A DNA stretch of 64,000 nt from Escherichia coli (GTDB lineage Bacteria; Pseudomonadota; Gammaproteobacteria; Enterobacterales; Enterobacteriaceae): NCBI RefSeq assembly GCF_002854065.1, contig NZ_CP024147.1; one strand, 5' to 3'. A model generated the notes under the pieces. The model was not told where the DNA came from. It did not search any database and saw only the letters and a list, made by a program, of their open reading frames with translations. Positions within the stretch are counted from its first letter, which is position 1; each line of letters opens with the position of its first letter. A program made the position numbers and the translations under genes. Shown one piece after another: positions 18,287 through 47,781 of the stretch.

Positions 18287-18600
18287 AACAAACAACTCCT
18301 TGTCCGGAGAACCCCAATGGGGAAAACGAAATTCAATACCGTCGGTAATGACGAAAGGCAGGCGAGAAGGACAAATGTACTGAATTTCATGTAATCAACC
18401 ACACTGCCTGCGAATACACAGACAGAGAAATACCTTCTGACTCCAGGTCAGAATGTATAACGATTACAAATAGTCATCAGCACATTACACCTCTTTAATT
18501 GATGGCTTGCATAGAAAATATACACCTTAAGTGTAATTAAAATTTGGTAATGCTGCCAACTTACTGATTTAGTGTATGATGGTGATTTTAAGGTGCTTGC

Positions 18601-18876
18601 GTGGCTTCCATTTCCATCAGATGTCCTTCCTGCTCCACTACTGAAGGCGTGGTGCGTAACGGCAAAAGCACTGCCGGACATCAGCGCTATCTCTGCTCTC
18701 ATTGCCGTAAAACATGGCAACTACAGTTCACTTACACCGCCTCTCAGCCCGGTACGCACCAGAAAATCATTGATATGGCCATGAATGGCGTCGGATGTCG
18801 CGCCAGTGCACGCATTATGGGCGTTGGCCTCAACACGGTTTTACGTCACTTAAAAAACTCAGGCCGCAGTCGGTAA
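18601..18876 (+). CDS. insA: IS1 InsA (DNA-binding regulator, zinc-finger CPSC...CSHC)
   Basis: Track ORF, 91 aa, GTG start, [37 protein letters not shown]... Confidence 0.85.
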
Positions 18877-19298
18877 CCTCGCGCATACAACCGGGCAGTG
18901 ATGTGATTGTCTGCGCTGAAATGGACGAACAGTGGGGCTACGTCGGTGCTAAATCACGTCAGCGCTGGCTGTTTTACGCGTATGACAGGATACGGAGGAC
19001 GGTTGTGGCGCACGTCTTCGGTGAACGCACTCTGGCCACACTGGAGCGTCTTCTGAGCCTGCTGTCGGCCTTTGAGGTCGTAGTATAGATGACGGATGGC
19101 TGGCCGCTGTATGAATCACGCCTGAAGGGAAAGCTGCACGTTATCAGCAAGCGTTACACTCAGCGCATTGAGCGACATAACCTGAATCTGAGACAACATC
19201 TGGCAAGGCTGGGACGGAAGTCACTGTCGTTCTCAAAATCGGTGGAGCTGCATGACAAGGTCATCGGGCATTATCTGAACATAAAACACTATCAGTAA
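18795..19298 (+). pseudogene. insB: IS1 insB' transposase frame interrupted by an in-frame TAG (expected Trp codon) at 19086..19088
   Basis: Track splits the frame into 18795..19088 (...LLSAFEVVV*) and 19089..19298 ([14 protein letters not shown]...). As I recall it, canonical IS1 reads ...DVVIWMTDGW... through this point. Confidence 0.7.
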
Positions 19299-19439
19299 GT
19301 TGGAGTCATTACCCGACAGCGAGGTGTTTAGTGTGCCATGTCAGGCGAGAAATTCTATTGGATGAATCAAGTCCAACTTACTCATTGTCAATTTCATGGT
19401 TGATTATTCGAAACGTGATGCTATTTCCAACATCAACGC

Positions 19440-19481
19440 TATAATTGCAGAATAATTGTAGATACATTTTTGTATATACAA
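19440..19481 (+). promoter_or_regulatory. Putative brnTA promoter (-10 TATAAT) and operator-like inverted repeat TTGTAGATACA-tttt-TGTATATACAA
   Basis: Perfect tataat at about 19440..19445; 11-bp inverted repeat (10 of 11 matching) at about 19456..19481, just upstream of the AGGGA Shine-Dalgarno of brnT. Confidence 0.4.
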
Positions 19482-19496
19482 TTAGGGATGGCAATT

Positions 19497-19784
19497 ATGC
19501 CAATGGAGTTTGAATGGGATGAAAACAAGGCCAAAAGTAATCGGGTGAAACATGGCATCCGCTTTGAAGATGCGGTGTTATTGTTTGATGATCCACAACA
19601 TTTGTCACAGCAAGAACGCATAGAAAACGGTGAGTATCGCTGGCAGACAATCGGCCTGGTTTACGGCATCGTGGTTATTCTGGTTGCGCATACCATCCGT
19701 TTCGAAAGCGGAAATGAAATTATTCGAATCATCAGTGCACGAAAAGCAGATCGTAAAGAGAGGAATCGCTATGAGCATGGTTAA
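19497..19784 (+). CDS. brnT: BrnT-like toxin (DUF497, RelE/ParE-superfamily ribonuclease fold), 95 aa
   Basis: Track ORF 19470..19784 trimmed to MPMEFEWDENKAKSNRVKHGIRFEDAVLLFDDP...IIRIISARKADRKERNRYEHG; N-terminal FEWDE.K...KHG and C-terminal RIISARKA are hallmarks of DUF497. Confidence 0.8.
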   Translation: MPMEFEWDENKAKSNRVKHGIRFEDAVLLFDDPQHLSQQERIENGEYRWQTIGLVYGIVVILVAHTIRFESGNEIIRIISARKADRKERNRYEHG

Positions 19785-20073
19785 ACATAAACGAGGGACC
19801 TCCTCTACACTCGATGTGCAGCATGAGGCCGAACTGAAGGCGCTGACGAATAAATCCGACGAAGATATTGATTACAGTGATATCCCACCTTCCAGCGATG
19901 AGCAATGGTCTAACGCCGAACGCGGTAAGTTTTATCGGCCATTGAAAACTCAGGCTTCGGTGCGTATTGATGCTGATGTGATGGAATGGTTGAAGCGACC
20001 AGGTAAAGGCTATCAAACTCGCCTGAACGCAATTTTACGTGAAGCGATGCTGCGCGATCAGAACAAAAAATAA
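19771..20073 (+). CDS. brnA: BrnA-like antitoxin (DUF4415, ribbon-helix-helix type), 100 aa
   Basis: In-frame ATG within track ORF 19630..20073: MSMVKHKRGTSS...VRIDADVMEWLKRPGKGYQTRLNAILREAML; start overlaps the brnT 3' end by 14 nt; GAGAGGAA Shine-Dalgarno. Confidence 0.8.
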   Translation: MSMVKHKRGTSSTLDVQHEAELKALTNKSDEDIDYSDIPPSSDEQWSNAERGKFYRPLKTQASVRIDADVMEWLKRPGKGYQTRLNAILREAMLRDQNKK

Positions 20074-33830: not shown

Positions 33831-35065
<1,235 letters not shown>

Positions 35066-35683
35066 AACTCGCCCTTTGTCATAGACGTGCTGCGTATTGT
35101 TCAGATAATGAGAATCCATTTGTATCATGAAGCACGGTTGTTTTGCGGTAGGTTAAGATCAAAATTGCGCTGATTAATCCTGGTTATCGGGACAAGCTCG
35201 GTGATAAAAAGCGAATTATCTCTCGTCGCAAACAAACTATCACATGAATATTATCACCATAATGAATTTATTGTTTGTCCTTTACGAACCAGAATAATAG
35301 ATAACCGGGCACGTTTTTTAATGTTAACAAGTTAAAATCATCAGATTTCATTGAATAAATATTGGTTGTGTGATTTTTCATTCTGCGGGAAGGGATATCA
35401 TTTAATTATAAATTAAATGAATGTGATTTCTGTTTTTCATTAAGTATTCCTAACAACTTAATGTAGATATTTTAAATGTCTCCAGGCTATTTCACCAGGT
35501 TATCATTTGATGCTAACCTTCTGACACATGCAGTGGAGTTGTTGTGCAGCAGGAGTATGCTGATATGAAAGTGAATGCTAAGGATAATTTATTCGCTTAA
35601 TCTATTAATTTGCTGGAAACATTTAAGGAATGAATATCCTGAATAAACCATCATAATTTTTAGGCAGTGGATGTGGAGGAAAT
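35066..35683. promoter_or_regulatory. 618 bp AT-rich divergent yjjP / yjjQ-bglJ control region (H-NS-type silenced locus)
   Basis: Very AT-rich with no ORF of 60 aa or more; silencing by H-NS is from established knowledge, not seen in sequence. Confidence 0.4.
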
Positions 35684-36409
35684 ATGTTGCCAGGATGCTG
35701 CAAAAATGGAATTGTTATCAGTAAAATACCTGTTATGCAAGCAGGGTTAAAAGAGGCCATGAGGACTCACTTCCCTGAATATGAAATAATATCCAGCGCC
35801 TCTGCGGAGGACCTTACCTTATTACAATTACGTCGTTCCGGATTAGTCATTGCTGATTTAGCCGGTGAAAGTGAAGATCCACGTTCTGTTTGTGAACATT
35901 ATTATTCTTTAATCTCACAATATCGGGAAATTCACTGGGTTTTCATGGTGTCACGCTCCTGGTATTCCCAGGCAGTAGAACTGCTCATGTGCCCTACGGC
36001 GACGTTATTGTCTGATGTTGAACCCATTGAGAATCTGGTCAAGACCGTACGTTCCGGCAATACGCACGCAGAGCGTATCAGCGCCATGCTGACCTCCCCG
36101 GCAATGACTGAAACTCATGATTTTAGCTATCGCTCCGTCATTCTCACTCTTTCAGAGCGCAAGGTACTGCGGCTATTAGGTAAAGGATGGGGCATCAACC
36201 AGATAGCTTCATTGCTTAAGAAAAGTAATAAAACTATCAGCGCCCAAAAAAACAGTGCGATGCGTCGACTGGCAATTCACAGCAACGCTGAAATGTATGC
36301 ATGGATAAATAGCGCGCAGGGTGCAAGAGAACTTAACTTGCCTTCTGTTTATGGAGATGCCGCAGAATGGAACACAGCCGAATTAAGAAGAGAAATGTCG
36401 CACTCATAG
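35684..36409 (+). CDS. yjjQ: LuxR/FixJ-family regulator YjjQ
   Basis: Track ORF, 241 aa, GGAGGA Shine-Dalgarno, C-terminal LuxR HTH ([23 protein letters not shown]). Confidence 0.85.
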
Positions 36410-37044
36410 AAAAATGCGTCATGAGTAGTATCGGTATTGAGAGTTTATTCAGAAAGTTTGCGGGCACCCCTTATAAGCTCCATACCTATACCAGTCAGGA
36501 GTCATTTCAGGATGCCATGTCGCGGATCTCGTTTGCGGCGGTCATTTTTTCTTTTTCTGCCATGAGAAGTGAGCGCAGAGAGGGATTATCTTGCCTGACT
36601 GAACTGGCGATTAAGTTTCCGCGTACCCGGCGTTTAGTTATTGCGGATGATGATATTGAAGCTCGGCTGATTGGTTCATTGTCGCCATCACCGCTGGACG
36701 GTGTATTAAGTAAAGCGTCAACGCTGGAGATTTTTCATCAGGAACTCTTTTTGTCATTAAATGGTGTACGTCAGGCGACCGACCGACTGAACAATCAGTG
36801 GTACATTAACCAAAGCCGGACGCTAAGCCCGACGGAGAGAGAAATATTGCGCTTTATGTCGCGTGGCTACTCAATGACACAAATTGCCGAGCAGCTTAAA
36901 CGCAATATCAAAACGATCCGCGCGCATAAATTTAATGTGATGTCGAAACTGGGCGTCAGTTCTGATGCAGGATTGTTGGAGGCCGCAGATATTCTGTTAT
37001 GTATGCGGCATTGCGAAGCAAGTAATGTGTTGCATCCCTATTAA
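36367..37044 (+). CDS. bglJ: LuxR/FixJ-family regulator BglJ
   Basis: Track ORF, 225 aa, overlaps the yjjQ 3' end by 43 nt; C-terminal LuxR HTH ([25 protein letters not shown]). Confidence 0.85.
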
Positions 37045-37081
37045 TCCGCATGATGCCGGGTTTACTTCCCCGGCAGTGCTT

Positions 37082-37870
37082 TCATTTCAGCGTACAATCG
37101 CCACATTGCTGCACATCCGGTAAGCGATAACGCTGGCAGCAAGTGCGGCGCACCAGCAGGCCGTCGCGCAGTACCACGGTACGCCAGAGTGGATTATCTT
37201 CACCGTTCGTGAGCGTTTTCTCAAAAAAGATGGCATGGCGCAGCGATTCAACCGTCGCCTCGCCGAGCAGTTGCTTCATCTCAGTGAGATACCAGTTGAT
37301 CAAATAACCGGTATTACTCCAGATAAGTTTGCCGTTGATCTCTCCGGTCGCTTCTAGTGCCTGCACAACCGGAACCAGCGCCTGGCTGATTAACGTTTCC
37401 ATTCGCTGCTGCGGCGAATGTGGTGTTGCGTTTTTATCTTCACACACATCGACCCAGAAACAGGCGGCACGGCCGGTTTCGTGAAACTCAGCATGGAAAT
37501 GTTCCGGCGACACATCTAATGCTTTTTCCTGCGTCAGTAGCGCCAGCATTAATGGTGGCACCATCAGGCCGATATACCATTGTGCCCATAGTGAGATCAG
37601 CGGTTTGTTCTCGCGGATCATCGTTGGTTGGTTGCGATAGATATGATCGGAATAGACCGCGAGTAGAGAACTTAGCGCATTCGGTGATGACCATTGCGCC
37701 AGCGTCATGGCGTTAAGCGGAGCGGGTTCATCCAGGCGGATAAACTCCAGCAAATGTTCACGATGTTCGGCGATCGTCGCACGTACGGCTTGTGCAAGCC
37801 CAGCATCCTGTGGCTGGAGATGCGTTCGCCAGATGATATCTTCATAGAGCGGTGCGGAACGATAGGCCAT
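37082..37870 (-). CDS. fhuF: Ferric-siderophore reductase FhuF (2Fe-2S, C-C-x10-C-x2-C)
   Basis: Track ORF, 262 aa, C-terminal RRTCCQRYRLPDVQQCGDCTL. Confidence 0.9.
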   Translation of the reverse strand: MAYRSAPLYEDIIWRTHLQPQDAGLAQAVRATIAEHREHLLEFIRLDEPAPLNAMTLAQWSSPNALSSLLAVYSDHIYRNQPTMIRENKPLISLWAQWYIGLMVPPLMLALLTQEKALDVSPEHFHAEFHETGRAACFWVDVCEDKNATPHSPQQRMETLISQALVPVVQALEATGEINGKLIWSNTGYLINWYLTEMKQLLGEATVESLRHAIFFEKTLTNGEDNPLWRTVVLRDGLLVRRTCCQRYRLPDVQQCGDCTLK

Positions 37871-40041: not shown

Positions 40042-40455
40042 ATGACATCCCGACGAGACTGGCAGTTACAGCAACTGGGCATTACCCAGTGGTCGCTGCG
40101 TCGCCCTGGCGCGTTGCAGGGGGAGATTGCCATTGCGATCCCGGCACACGTCCGTCTGGTGATGGTGGCAAACGATCTTCCCGCCCTGACTGATCCTTTA
40201 GTGAGCGATGTTCTGCGCGCATTAACCGTCAGCCCCGACCAGGTGCTGCAACTGACGCCAGAAAAAATCGCGATGCTGCCGCAAGGCAGTCGCTGCAACA
40301 GCTGGCGGTTGGGTACTGACGAACCGCTATCACTGGAAGGCGCTCAGGTGGCATCACCGGCGCTCACCGAATTACGGGCAAACCCAACGGCACGCGCCGC
40401 GTTATGGCAACAGATTTGCACATATGAACACGATTTCTTCCCTCGAAACGACTGA
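40042..40455 (+). CDS. holD: DNA polymerase III psi subunit
   Basis: Track ORF, 137 aa, MTSRRDWQLQQLGITQWSLRRP... Confidence 0.9.
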   Translation: MTSRRDWQLQQLGITQWSLRRPGALQGEIAIAIPAHVRLVMVANDLPALTDPLVSDVLRALTVSPDQVLQLTPEKIAMLPQGSRCNSWRLGTDEPLSLEGAQVASPALTELRANPTARAALWQQICTYEHDFFPRND

Positions 40456-44649: not shown

Positions 44650-45723
44650 GTGGGGCAGCGAATACCTGTAACGCTTGGTAATATTGCGCCGTTGTCGCTA
44701 AGGCCGTTCCAGCCTGGACGAATAGCTCTGGTGTGCGAAGGCGGCGGACAGCGTGGAATTTTCACGGCTGGCGTGCTGGATGAGTTTATGCGCGCGCAGT
44801 TTAATCCTTTCGATCTTTATCTCGGCACATCTGCCGGGGCGCAGAACCTCTCGGCGTTTATCTGCAATCAGCCCGGTTACGCGCGCAAAGTCATCATGCG
44901 CTATACCACAAAACGCGAATTTTTCGATCCATTGCGCTTTGTCCGTGGAGGAAATCTTATCGATCTCGACTGGCTGGTGGAGGCCACCGCAAGCCAGATG
45001 CCGTTGCAAATGGATACCGCCGCGCGGTTGTTTGACAGCGGCAAATCGTTTTATATGTGCGCCTGTCGTCAGGATGACTACGCGCCGAATTACTTTTTAC
45101 CAACCAAACAAAACTGGCTGGATGTGATTCGCGCCTCCAGTGCGATACCTGGCTTTTATCGTAGCGGAGTGTCGCTGGAAGGCATTAACTACCTGGATGG
45201 CGGGATCAGTGATGCGATTCCGGTTAAAGAGGCGGCAAGGCAGGGCGCTAAAACGTTGGTCGTCATCCGCACTGTGCCGTCACAAATGTACTACACGCCG
45301 CAGTGGTTCAAACGCATGGAACGCTGGCTGGGTGACAGTAGCCTGCAGCCGCTGGTCAATCTGGTGCAGCATCATGAAACCAGCTATCGTGACATTCAGC
45401 AATTTATTGAGAAACCACCGGGCAAGCTGCGGATATTCGAAATTTATCCGCCGAAGCCATTACATAGTATCGCGCTTGGCAGTCGGGTTCCGGCGCTGCG
45501 TGAAGACTATAAACTTGGGCGTTTATGCGGTCGTTATTTCCTCGCCACGGTTGGCAAGCTATTAACTGAAAAAGCGCCGCTTACCCGCCATCTGGTGCCA
45601 GTGGTGACGCCGGAATCGATCGTTATTCCGCCTGCGCCAGTCGCCAACGATACGCTGGTTGCCGAAGTGAGCGATGCTCCGCAGGCGAACGACCCGACAT
45701 TTAACAATGAGGATCTGGCTTGA
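44650..45723 (+). CDS. yjjU: Patatin-like phospholipase YjjU
   Basis: Track ORF 44614..45723 trimmed to GTG start (MGQRIPVTLGN...), 357 aa, GGGxRG and GTSAG patatin motifs. Confidence 0.8.
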   Translation: MGQRIPVTLGNIAPLSLRPFQPGRIALVCEGGGQRGIFTAGVLDEFMRAQFNPFDLYLGTSAGAQNLSAFICNQPGYARKVIMRYTTKREFFDPLRFVRGGNLIDLDWLVEATASQMPLQMDTAARLFDSGKSFYMCACRQDDYAPNYFLPTKQNWLDVIRASSAIPGFYRSGVSLEGINYLDGGISDAIPVKEAARQGAKTLVVIRTVPSQMYYTPQWFKRMERWLGDSSLQPLVNLVQHHETSYRDIQQFIEKPPGKLRIFEIYPPKPLHSIALGSRVPALREDYKLGRLCGRYFLATVGKLLTEKAPLTRHLVPVVTPESIVIPPAPVANDTLVAEVSDAPQANDPTFNNEDLA

Positions 45724-46917: not shown

Positions 46918-47781
46918 TCACAAATACAGCGCCGGAAATATCAACCGGCCCACCCCGCGCACCTTTAATGCATCAGCCAACGGCTCAACGTCTTCCGGCG
47001 TGGCGCTCGCCCAGCTTTGCGCCTCGCCATACACGCCGTGGGCATGAAACGCGTTCAGGCGTACCGGAACATCGCCAAGTCCCTTGATAAACGCCGCCAG
47101 TTCTTCGATGTGTTGCAAATAATCCACCTGGCCAGGGATTACCAGCAAACGCAGTTCCGCCAGCTTGCCGCGCTCTGCCAGCAAACAGATGCTGCGCTTA
47201 ATCTGCTGATTATCGCGTCCGGTTAATTGTTGATGACATTCGCTACCCCATGCTTTGAGATCGAGCATTGCGCCGTCACACACCGGGAGTAATTTTTCCC
47301 AGCCGGTTTCGCTCAACATGCCGTTACTGTCCACCAGACAGGTGAGATGGCGCAGTTGCGGATCGTTTTTGATAGCAGTAAACAGCGCCACTACAAACGG
47401 CAGTTGGGTCGTGGCTTCGCCGCCGCTTACCGTTATCCCTTCAATAAACAGCACCGCTTTGCGGACATGGCTAAGCACTTCGTCCACGCTCATGGATTGC
47501 GCCATCGGCGTGGCATGTTGCGGACACCTCTTCAGGCAGGTATCACACTGCTCGCAGACCGCAGCGTTCCACACCACTTTGCCGTCAACAATCTGCAACG
47601 CCTGATGCGGACACTGTGGCACGCACTCTCCGCAATGATTACAGCGCCCCATCGTCCACGGATTGTGACAGTTTTTGCAGCGCAGATTGCAGCCCTGCAA
47701 AAACAGAGCCAGACGACTGCCTGGCCCGTCAACGCAGGAGAAGGGGATAATCTTACTGACTAAAGCGCATCTGCTGTTCAT
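46918..47781 (-). CDS. yjjW: Radical-SAM glycyl-radical-enzyme activating protein YjjW
   Basis: Track ORF, 287 aa, CxxxCxxC motif ([13 protein letters not shown]) plus additional Cys clusters. Confidence 0.85.

Follow-up and report, generated by a model that had tools for sequence, protein, structure and literature searches.

Does bglJ begin inside yjjQ and, if it does, must yjjQ be translated for bglJ to be translated? These questions are raised by a 64,000-nt stretch of Escherichia coli DNA (hereafter the window), in which two regulator genes overlap on the same strand. The yjjQ coding sequence (35684..36409, + strand), present in the open reading frame listing and in RefSeq, encodes a 241-aa regulator with a LuxR/GerE-type helix-turn-helix (HTH; Pfam GerE, E = 6.7e-8). 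The bglJ coding sequence (36367..37044, + strand; open reading frame listing) encodes a 225-aa protein composed of a putative RcsB-like pseudo-receiver and a GerE HTH. The two share the 43 nt from 36367 to 36409 (+ strand), which hold bglJ codons 1-14 plus base 1 of codon 15 in one frame and yjjQ codons 228-241 and the stop codon in the other. The bglJ start codon ATG (M1; 36367..36369, + strand) takes its A from the end of the yjjQ Glu228 codon (GAA) and its TG from the start of the Trp229 codon (TGG), and the yjjQ stop codon TAG lies at 36407..36409 (+ strand; open reading frame listing). The frames differ since 43 mod 3 = 1, and yjjQ codon position 3 coincides with bglJ codon position 1 in the open reading frame listing. 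Long gene overlaps are a classic sign of mis-called starts.

The first-pass annotation of this DNA had described a 43-nt out-of-frame overlap between the two genes, and the open reading frame listing and RefSeq both bear it out. Both coding sequences and their overlap are recorded identically by RefSeq/PGAP for K-12 BW25113 and for strain STN0717-20, whose genome is the closest. The window is 99.9% identical to STN0717-20 over 1.8 kb and 99.3% identical to BW25113, and the yjjQ-bglJ segment was found in 5,424 of 5,426 complete genomes. Gene order at the locus is yjjP<->yjjQ-bglJ-fhuF; this is the published E. coli operon itself, with identical gene order, coding sequence coordinates and 43-nt overlap. 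The overlap is already known and belongs to the standard annotation of that operon in E. coli, which is described as H-NS-repressed and LeuO-activated in PMC5025477 and PMC3950696, both citing Stratmann 2008. From the yjjP-yjjQ intergenic region into the 5' end of yjjQ (35150-35750) the DNA is AT-rich, with 31-39% G+C vs. about 50% in the flanks, which fits the H-NS silencing of the divergent promoters described in PMC5025477. The BW25113 record NZ_CP122319.1 (L001, 496-1266) labels yjjP a pseudogene with an internal stop, which may reflect either a strain mutation or an assembly error; in contrast, yjjP is intact (771 nt) in the window and in STN0717-20.

The choice of bglJ start lies between M1 and an alternative in-frame ATG at 36421..36423 (+ strand; M19), which lies 11 nt past the yjjQ stop codon, was the start of older 207-aa annotations and was judged here not to be the start. 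In E. coli, the ATG at 36367 is the sole ATG, GTG or TTG between the in-frame stop codon TAA at 36334-36336 and bglJ codon 10. Some Citrobacter species have an extra in-frame ATG 66 nt further upstream, which is not conserved. The 28 codons upstream of M19 that are free of stops have a chance probability of about 0.26, so the open frame alone is not significant. The junction was compared in 25 species of Escherichia, Citrobacter, Salmonella and Intestinirhabdus, and the M1 ATG was invariant in all of them and in 8 further orthologous loci.

The pattern of substitution near the end of yjjQ distinguishes the two frames. Within the last 15 nt (five codons) of yjjQ, the sites that vary among the 25 species are all third positions of bglJ codons and second positions of yjjQ codons. 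Over these five codons, the entropy at the three codon positions was 0/0/0.92 in the bglJ frame and 0/0.77/0.24 in the yjjQ frame, compared to 0.52/0.26/1.20 for yjjQ gene-wide in the same species. BglJ residues N10-V11-A12-L13 are invariant in the 25 species while the overlying YjjQ tail varies (M/T, S/L, H/R/L, and S/W/L), and bglJ codons 10-13, all upstream of M19, have a purely coding pattern in the bglJ frame. Because of this codon-position pattern, the frame under selection near the yjjQ stop codon, upstream of M19, is that of bglJ, and the conservation shows that the part of bglJ ahead of M19 is translated. Two coding sequences on the same strand share nucleotides here and both frames appear to be translated, because the bglJ frame is coding-patterned within the overlap and yjjQ stays open to the TAG at 36407 with its Glu-Trp pair kept.

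Signals for initiation also point to M1. An SD-like sequence, UAUGGAG (36350..36356, + strand), lies within yjjQ codons Tyr223-Gly224-Asp225, its GGAG (36353-36356) being separated from the ATG by a 10-nt spacer. All seven bases are invariant in the 25 species. The predicted anti-SD duplex at M1 was -6.4 kcal/mol in 25 of 25 species; M19 has no SD, and the predicted duplex there averaged -1.4 kcal/mol across species. For yjjQ's own start, the predicted duplex was -9.3 kcal/mol and conserved in 24 of the 25 species, and a GGAGG Shine-Dalgarno sequence can be read 4 nt before the yjjQ ATG (35675..35679, + strand). The synonymous third positions of yjjQ TAT223, GGA224 and GAA228 were all invariant (3/3 vs. 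2/86 elsewhere; Fisher p = 8.8e-5), the 86 comparison sites being the other synonymous yjjQ sites at residues invariant in the 25 species; the invariant GAA-TGG at the bglJ start may partly reflect YjjQ's own need for Glu-Trp. The only other invariant synonymous sites at invariant residues in the 25 species were yjjQ codons 2 (TTG) and 4 (GGA), at 35687-35695, which suggests a possible constraint on the yjjQ initiation region.

More distant orthologues (35-48% identity) keep the N-terminus that begins with Met-Glu (ME...) at the same distance from strand beta1. At six distant loci bglJ lies behind a yjjQ-like gene with overlaps of 55, 19, 10, 40, 52 and 40 nt, and the overlap is 40 nt in Salmonella bongori and S. 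enterica. Measured from the bglJ ATG, the yjjQ stop of the orthologues falls at +10 to +55 nt and always at 1 mod 3, and the bglJ ATG is made from the last base of a Glu or Gln codon (GAA or CAA) plus the first two bases of Trp229 at 33 of 33 loci. The YjjQ tail past Trp229 is short, and both its sequence and its length vary, which explains the spread of the overlap between 10 and 55 nt; since all overlaps are 1 mod 3 and their lengths variable, the start and the frame relation are fixed and the yjjQ stop drifts. What is conserved is the position of the bglJ start within the yjjQ Glu/Gln-Trp codons and not the length of the overlap. Both frames vary in the middle of the overlap, where bglJ codons 3-8 lie on yjjQ codons 230-236. 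The overlap looks like an apparently unconstrained YjjQ tail laid over a flexible BglJ N-terminus and beta1, and not like a tight co-constraint of two proteins.

The yjjQ stop has moved at two loci. In S. enterica subsp. arizonae (L021, 3225-3276) and at locus L037 (2501-2552), the usual yjjQ stop codon is lost and the frame continues four codons further to a TGA, which overlaps the second Met codon of bglJ as TGATG; the overlap with M1 is then 52 nt. The 40-nt form is kept in S. bongori and S. enterica subsp. enterica, unlike in subsp. arizonae. A different change is found in E. coli SCPM-O-B-8794 (L005, 2974-2976), in which a premature TAG interrupts yjjQ some 250 nt upstream of the bglJ start. 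Its bglJ frame is intact (225 aa), a natural case of bglJ retention without full-length yjjQ.

The predicted structure of BglJ bears on the start as well. An AlphaFold2 model, predicted from a 32-sequence alignment (pLDDT 89.7, pTM 0.83), places strands (E) and helices (H) in the order E9-14, H18-30, E36-41, H44-51, E58-62, H67-83, E88-93, H96-105, E112-115 and H120-132, that is, the N-terminal (beta-alpha)5 receiver fold of the NarL/FixJ type. The best Foldseek match of the model in the PDB was full-length RcsB (E = 4.5e-11, TM up to 0.69/0.77), and VraR, FixJ and NarL were also matched. A search of the PDB with the BglJ sequence only matched the HTH (residues 140-207, which align with RcsB) and returned nothing on the N-terminus. 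The C-terminal LuxR/GerE HTH was recognized by PF00196 at residues 152-203 (E = 1.3e-12). In the model, beta1 is formed by residues 9-14 (R-N-V-A-L-I), whose codons (36391..36408, + strand) lie inside the yjjQ tail. The family alignment, which extends down to about 21% identity, places the BglJ segment NVALIEKC against the beta1/DD motif of canonical response regulators. According to the model, the first 14 bglJ codons cannot be dispensed with, as they would include beta1 of the receiver.

BglJ resembles RcsB and its auxiliary partners in its GerE HTH and predicted receiver-like fold. It differs from canonical NarL/FixJ regulators in lacking the Asp-Asp pocket and the acceptor Asp: E15-K16 occupy the Asp-Asp position and Ser62 that of the acceptor Asp (alignment A1). 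The BglJ receiver is a predicted pseudo-receiver because the acidic pocket and the acceptor Asp are missing, which agrees with the published finding that the activity of BglJ-RcsB is independent of phosphorylation. BglJ-RcsB heterodimers are documented in PMC3950696.

The downstream start, which the first-pass annotation had named as the outcome that would remove the overlap, called for a check of its own. If the true start were M19, BglJ would have 207 aa and only an 11-nt gap past the yjjQ stop would separate the genes. Several observations are compatible with such a start: the NCBIfam equivalog NF008548 (PRK11475), which BglJ matches with 382.6 bits (E = 3.8e-115; cutoff 176), has 207 positions and covers residues 19-225 only; older S. 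bongori and Citrobacter records carry 207- and 193-aa proteins; M19 is invariant in 23 close species; and the yjjQ stop overlaps M19 in the TGATG of S. arizonae and L037. However, M19 sits at the start of helix alpha1 (H18-30) in the model, and initiation there would remove beta1, the central strand of the receiver sheet; orthologues L036 and L038 have Leu at that position; YjjQ has an equivalent internal Met (PVMQAG) at which it does not start; and every current PGAP annotation uses M1. The ATG at 36421 falls short on four counts, and we rejected it because of the codon pattern upstream of it, the conserved SD and ATG at M1, the placement of beta1 at residues 9-14 and the distant orthologues; we regard it as extremely unlikely to be the true start. 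We are highly confident that bglJ starts at the ATG at 36367, 43 nt before the yjjQ stop codon, within one H-NS-silenced operon.

A literature search found no experiment that directly maps the N-terminus or the start codon of BglJ, the primary operon papers being outside its scope, and nothing useful came from looking for bglJ in ribosome-profiling data. The yjjQ-bglJ operon is silent under standard ribosome-profiling conditions. What this analysis adds is comparative and structural evidence for the long (225-aa) form of BglJ; beyond annotation hygiene it changes little. NF008548/PRK11475 was evidently built on the downstream-start version and omits 18 N-terminal residues that include the predicted beta1 (its match in the window is 36421-37041). 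Since the long start is very probably right, this model and the older 207- and 193-aa records would lack the first 18 residues of the protein. The position of the bglJ ribosome binding site (RBS) inside yjjQ would have a practical consequence for studies of H-NS, LeuO and BglJ-RcsB, as deletions or insertions at the 3' end of yjjQ would alter bglJ too; likewise, edits in the first 14 bglJ codons would also alter the YjjQ tail.

The second question is whether bglJ translation depends on yjjQ translation. The first-pass annotation had proposed that it probably does, by coupling, on the ground that the last 43 nt of yjjQ begin with the bglJ ATG. The geometry stands, but dependence in its strong form is not favored by the SD, the RNA structure, the stop-start spacing or the plasmid data. 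According to the 2025 review PMC12548453, coupling works best if the start lies from -4 to +3 nt relative to the stop, an increase in overlap is more harmful than an increase in separation, and more than 80% of overlapping pairs share less than 30 bp. The bglJ start, at -43 nt here and between -10 and -55 nt in orthologues, falls outside the range of best coupling and away from the -4/-1 arrangement. The pair resembles short-overlap coupled pairs in that the genes are co-directional operon neighbors with the downstream start at or before the upstream stop, but differs from them in lying far outside that range. Such pairs are exemplified by trpE/trpD, with ATGA at -4 and TGATG at -1 being the usual forms, and within the window by yjjU/yjjV (TTGA, 4 nt).

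Experiments described for bglJ without yjjQ bear on the same point. According to PMC5025477, when a strain lacking yjjP-yjjQ-bglJ receives a fragment with only bglJ in pBAD30, the target is fully activated. Plasmids of the pBAD30 or pSC101 type that carry bglJ by itself are active in this background, 2 uM arabinose being already sufficient. Because neither the RBS nor the 5' end of the cloned fragment is described in the available text, this activity does not prove that the native RBS works alone. A miniTn10 insertion upstream of bglJ leads to constitutive BglJ, the RBS of this construct being undescribed in the available text of PMC3950696. When LeuO activates the native operon, BglJ is too low to activate its targets (PMC5025477); this could be the result of poor translation of bglJ from the native bicistronic mRNA.

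Comparison with the phage coat/lysis pairs sets the terms for two mechanisms by which bglJ could be strictly coupled. The lysis starts of fr (-38 nt) and MS2 (-50 nt) are like that of bglJ (-43 nt) in lying inside the upstream gene and out of frame with it. They are intrinsically closed or weak and need coat termination, whereas bglJ has a conserved SD and no predicted inhibitory structure. One mechanism is obligatory termination-reinitiation, in which a ribosome that ends yjjQ at 36407-36409 would scan about 40 nt back and restart at the ATG at 36367 with help from the SD. An overlap is kept with a constant relative frame in every orthologue examined, as this mechanism would lead one to expect, and an SD, which aided 70S scanning in vitro, is present; the fr pair was still coupled when moved from -38 to -50 nt (PMC12548453). 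However, the stop-to-start distance of 10-55 nt is not conserved, which argues that no particular geometry has been selected, and lengthening an overlap cuts coupling more than lengthening a separation does (PMC12548453). Moreover, in the phage fr experiments as described in PMC12548453, scanning ribosomes took the start codon nearest the stop. Under a scanning model the expected restart here is M19 (+12), and not M1, because M19 is nearest the yjjQ stop. The activity of plasmid-borne bglJ in the absence of yjjQ (PMC5025477) and the intact bglJ frame downstream of the yjjQ nonsense codon in L005 also count against the mechanism, which we consider improbable in its obligatory form; BglJ is unlikely to be made chiefly by termination-reinitiation from the yjjQ stop.

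In the other mechanism, which is proposed for MS2, the bglJ RBS would be locked in RNA structure and opened by ribosomes arriving at the end of yjjQ. With the start at -43 nt, a ribosome at the yjjQ stop would leave the bglJ RBS free, a geometry for which PMC12548453 considers the model plausible, and RNAalifold predicts a 4-bp CCUUC/GGAG mini-hairpin over the SD (columns 26-29/37-40). The mini-hairpin has no covariation, however, and is broken in one sequence. Over 36310-36450 the RNA folds no better than shuffled sequences (minimum free energy -27.2 vs. a mean of -29.9 kcal/mol, z = +0.89), and the 18-species RNAalifold search for conserved structure over the junction gave a consensus of just -2.85 kcal/mol. 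No Rfam match was found in 35000-37500. Sequestration of the RBS of the MS2 coat/lysis type was not found at bglJ, and coupling by unfolding has, in our judgment, a similarly low probability to obligatory reinitiation. At 36399-36418 a small stem (CGCA...UGCG, 4 consensus bp) flanks the yjjQ stop codon on both sides; it is weak and contributes little energy, and among the 18 species it shows one compensatory change and several one-sided changes. Consensus scans, which are weak evidence, found no sigma-70-like promoter on the + strand and no terminator-like site in the interior of yjjQ.

The evidence leans against a strict dependence of bglJ on yjjQ translation. In the account that we prefer, ribosomes would initiate bglJ de novo at its own moderate SD (UAUGGAG, 10-nt spacer) within yjjQ and would read bglJ codons 1-14 across the final 14 yjjQ codons in a second frame. 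Translation of yjjQ would not be a strict requirement. It may assist in an indirect way: the mRNA would stay covered and unfolded, and Rho would find no untranslated gap in which to load. It is this indirect help that we infer for an H-NS-silenced, AT-rich operon. A 10-nt spacer between SD and ATG is at the long end of the efficient range. Given this spacer, de novo initiation at bglJ may be weak and aided by coupling. Ribosome traffic or protection from Rho polarity could make bglJ partly and indirectly dependent on yjjQ translation. That bglJ is initiated independently inside yjjQ, with yjjQ translation not strictly required and of indirect help at most, is in our estimate only slightly on the probable side of even. 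The account as a whole, with M1 as the start and de novo initiation inside yjjQ, we take to be moderately probable.

Initiation at both ATGs would give two BglJ products, a full-length form from the ATG at 36367 and a form without beta1 from the ATG at 36421, the latter made only by ribosomes that have just terminated at the yjjQ stop. This reading is raised because the ATG at 36421 is the one nearest the yjjQ stop and because stop and start are joined as TGATG in S. arizonae and L037; we consider it very unlikely. Were it true, the proportion of active BglJ to a possibly interfering form with only the HTH would be set by yjjQ translation.

Within bglJ, at 36518-36550 (+ strand) and about 150 nt into the gene, a hairpin resembling a terminator, with 10 pairs of which 4 are G-C, precedes GTCATTTTTT. 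It may be a chance occurrence, since there are 3 such sites in the region vs. 1.6 +/- 1.5 in shuffled sequence.

The other compact overlaps in the window were checked by transferring the STN0717-20 annotation to window coordinates by exact matching. The lengths given for them in the first-pass annotation all agree with the transferred coordinates: brnT/brnA share 14 nt (19771-19784), yjjB/yjjP 10 nt (34295-34304), holD/rimI 32 nt (40424-40455), and yjjU/yjjV 4 nt (45720-45723). An overlap absent from that list is the 29 nt (47753-47781, - strand) shared by yjjW and yjjI, an activase and glycyl-radical enzyme pair. At 18600-20073, a frameshifted remnant of an IS1 transposase adjoins the brnT/brnA toxin-antitoxin pair, and the annotation of the closest genome indicates that the remnant and the pair form a strain-variable insertion between mdtM and yjiA.
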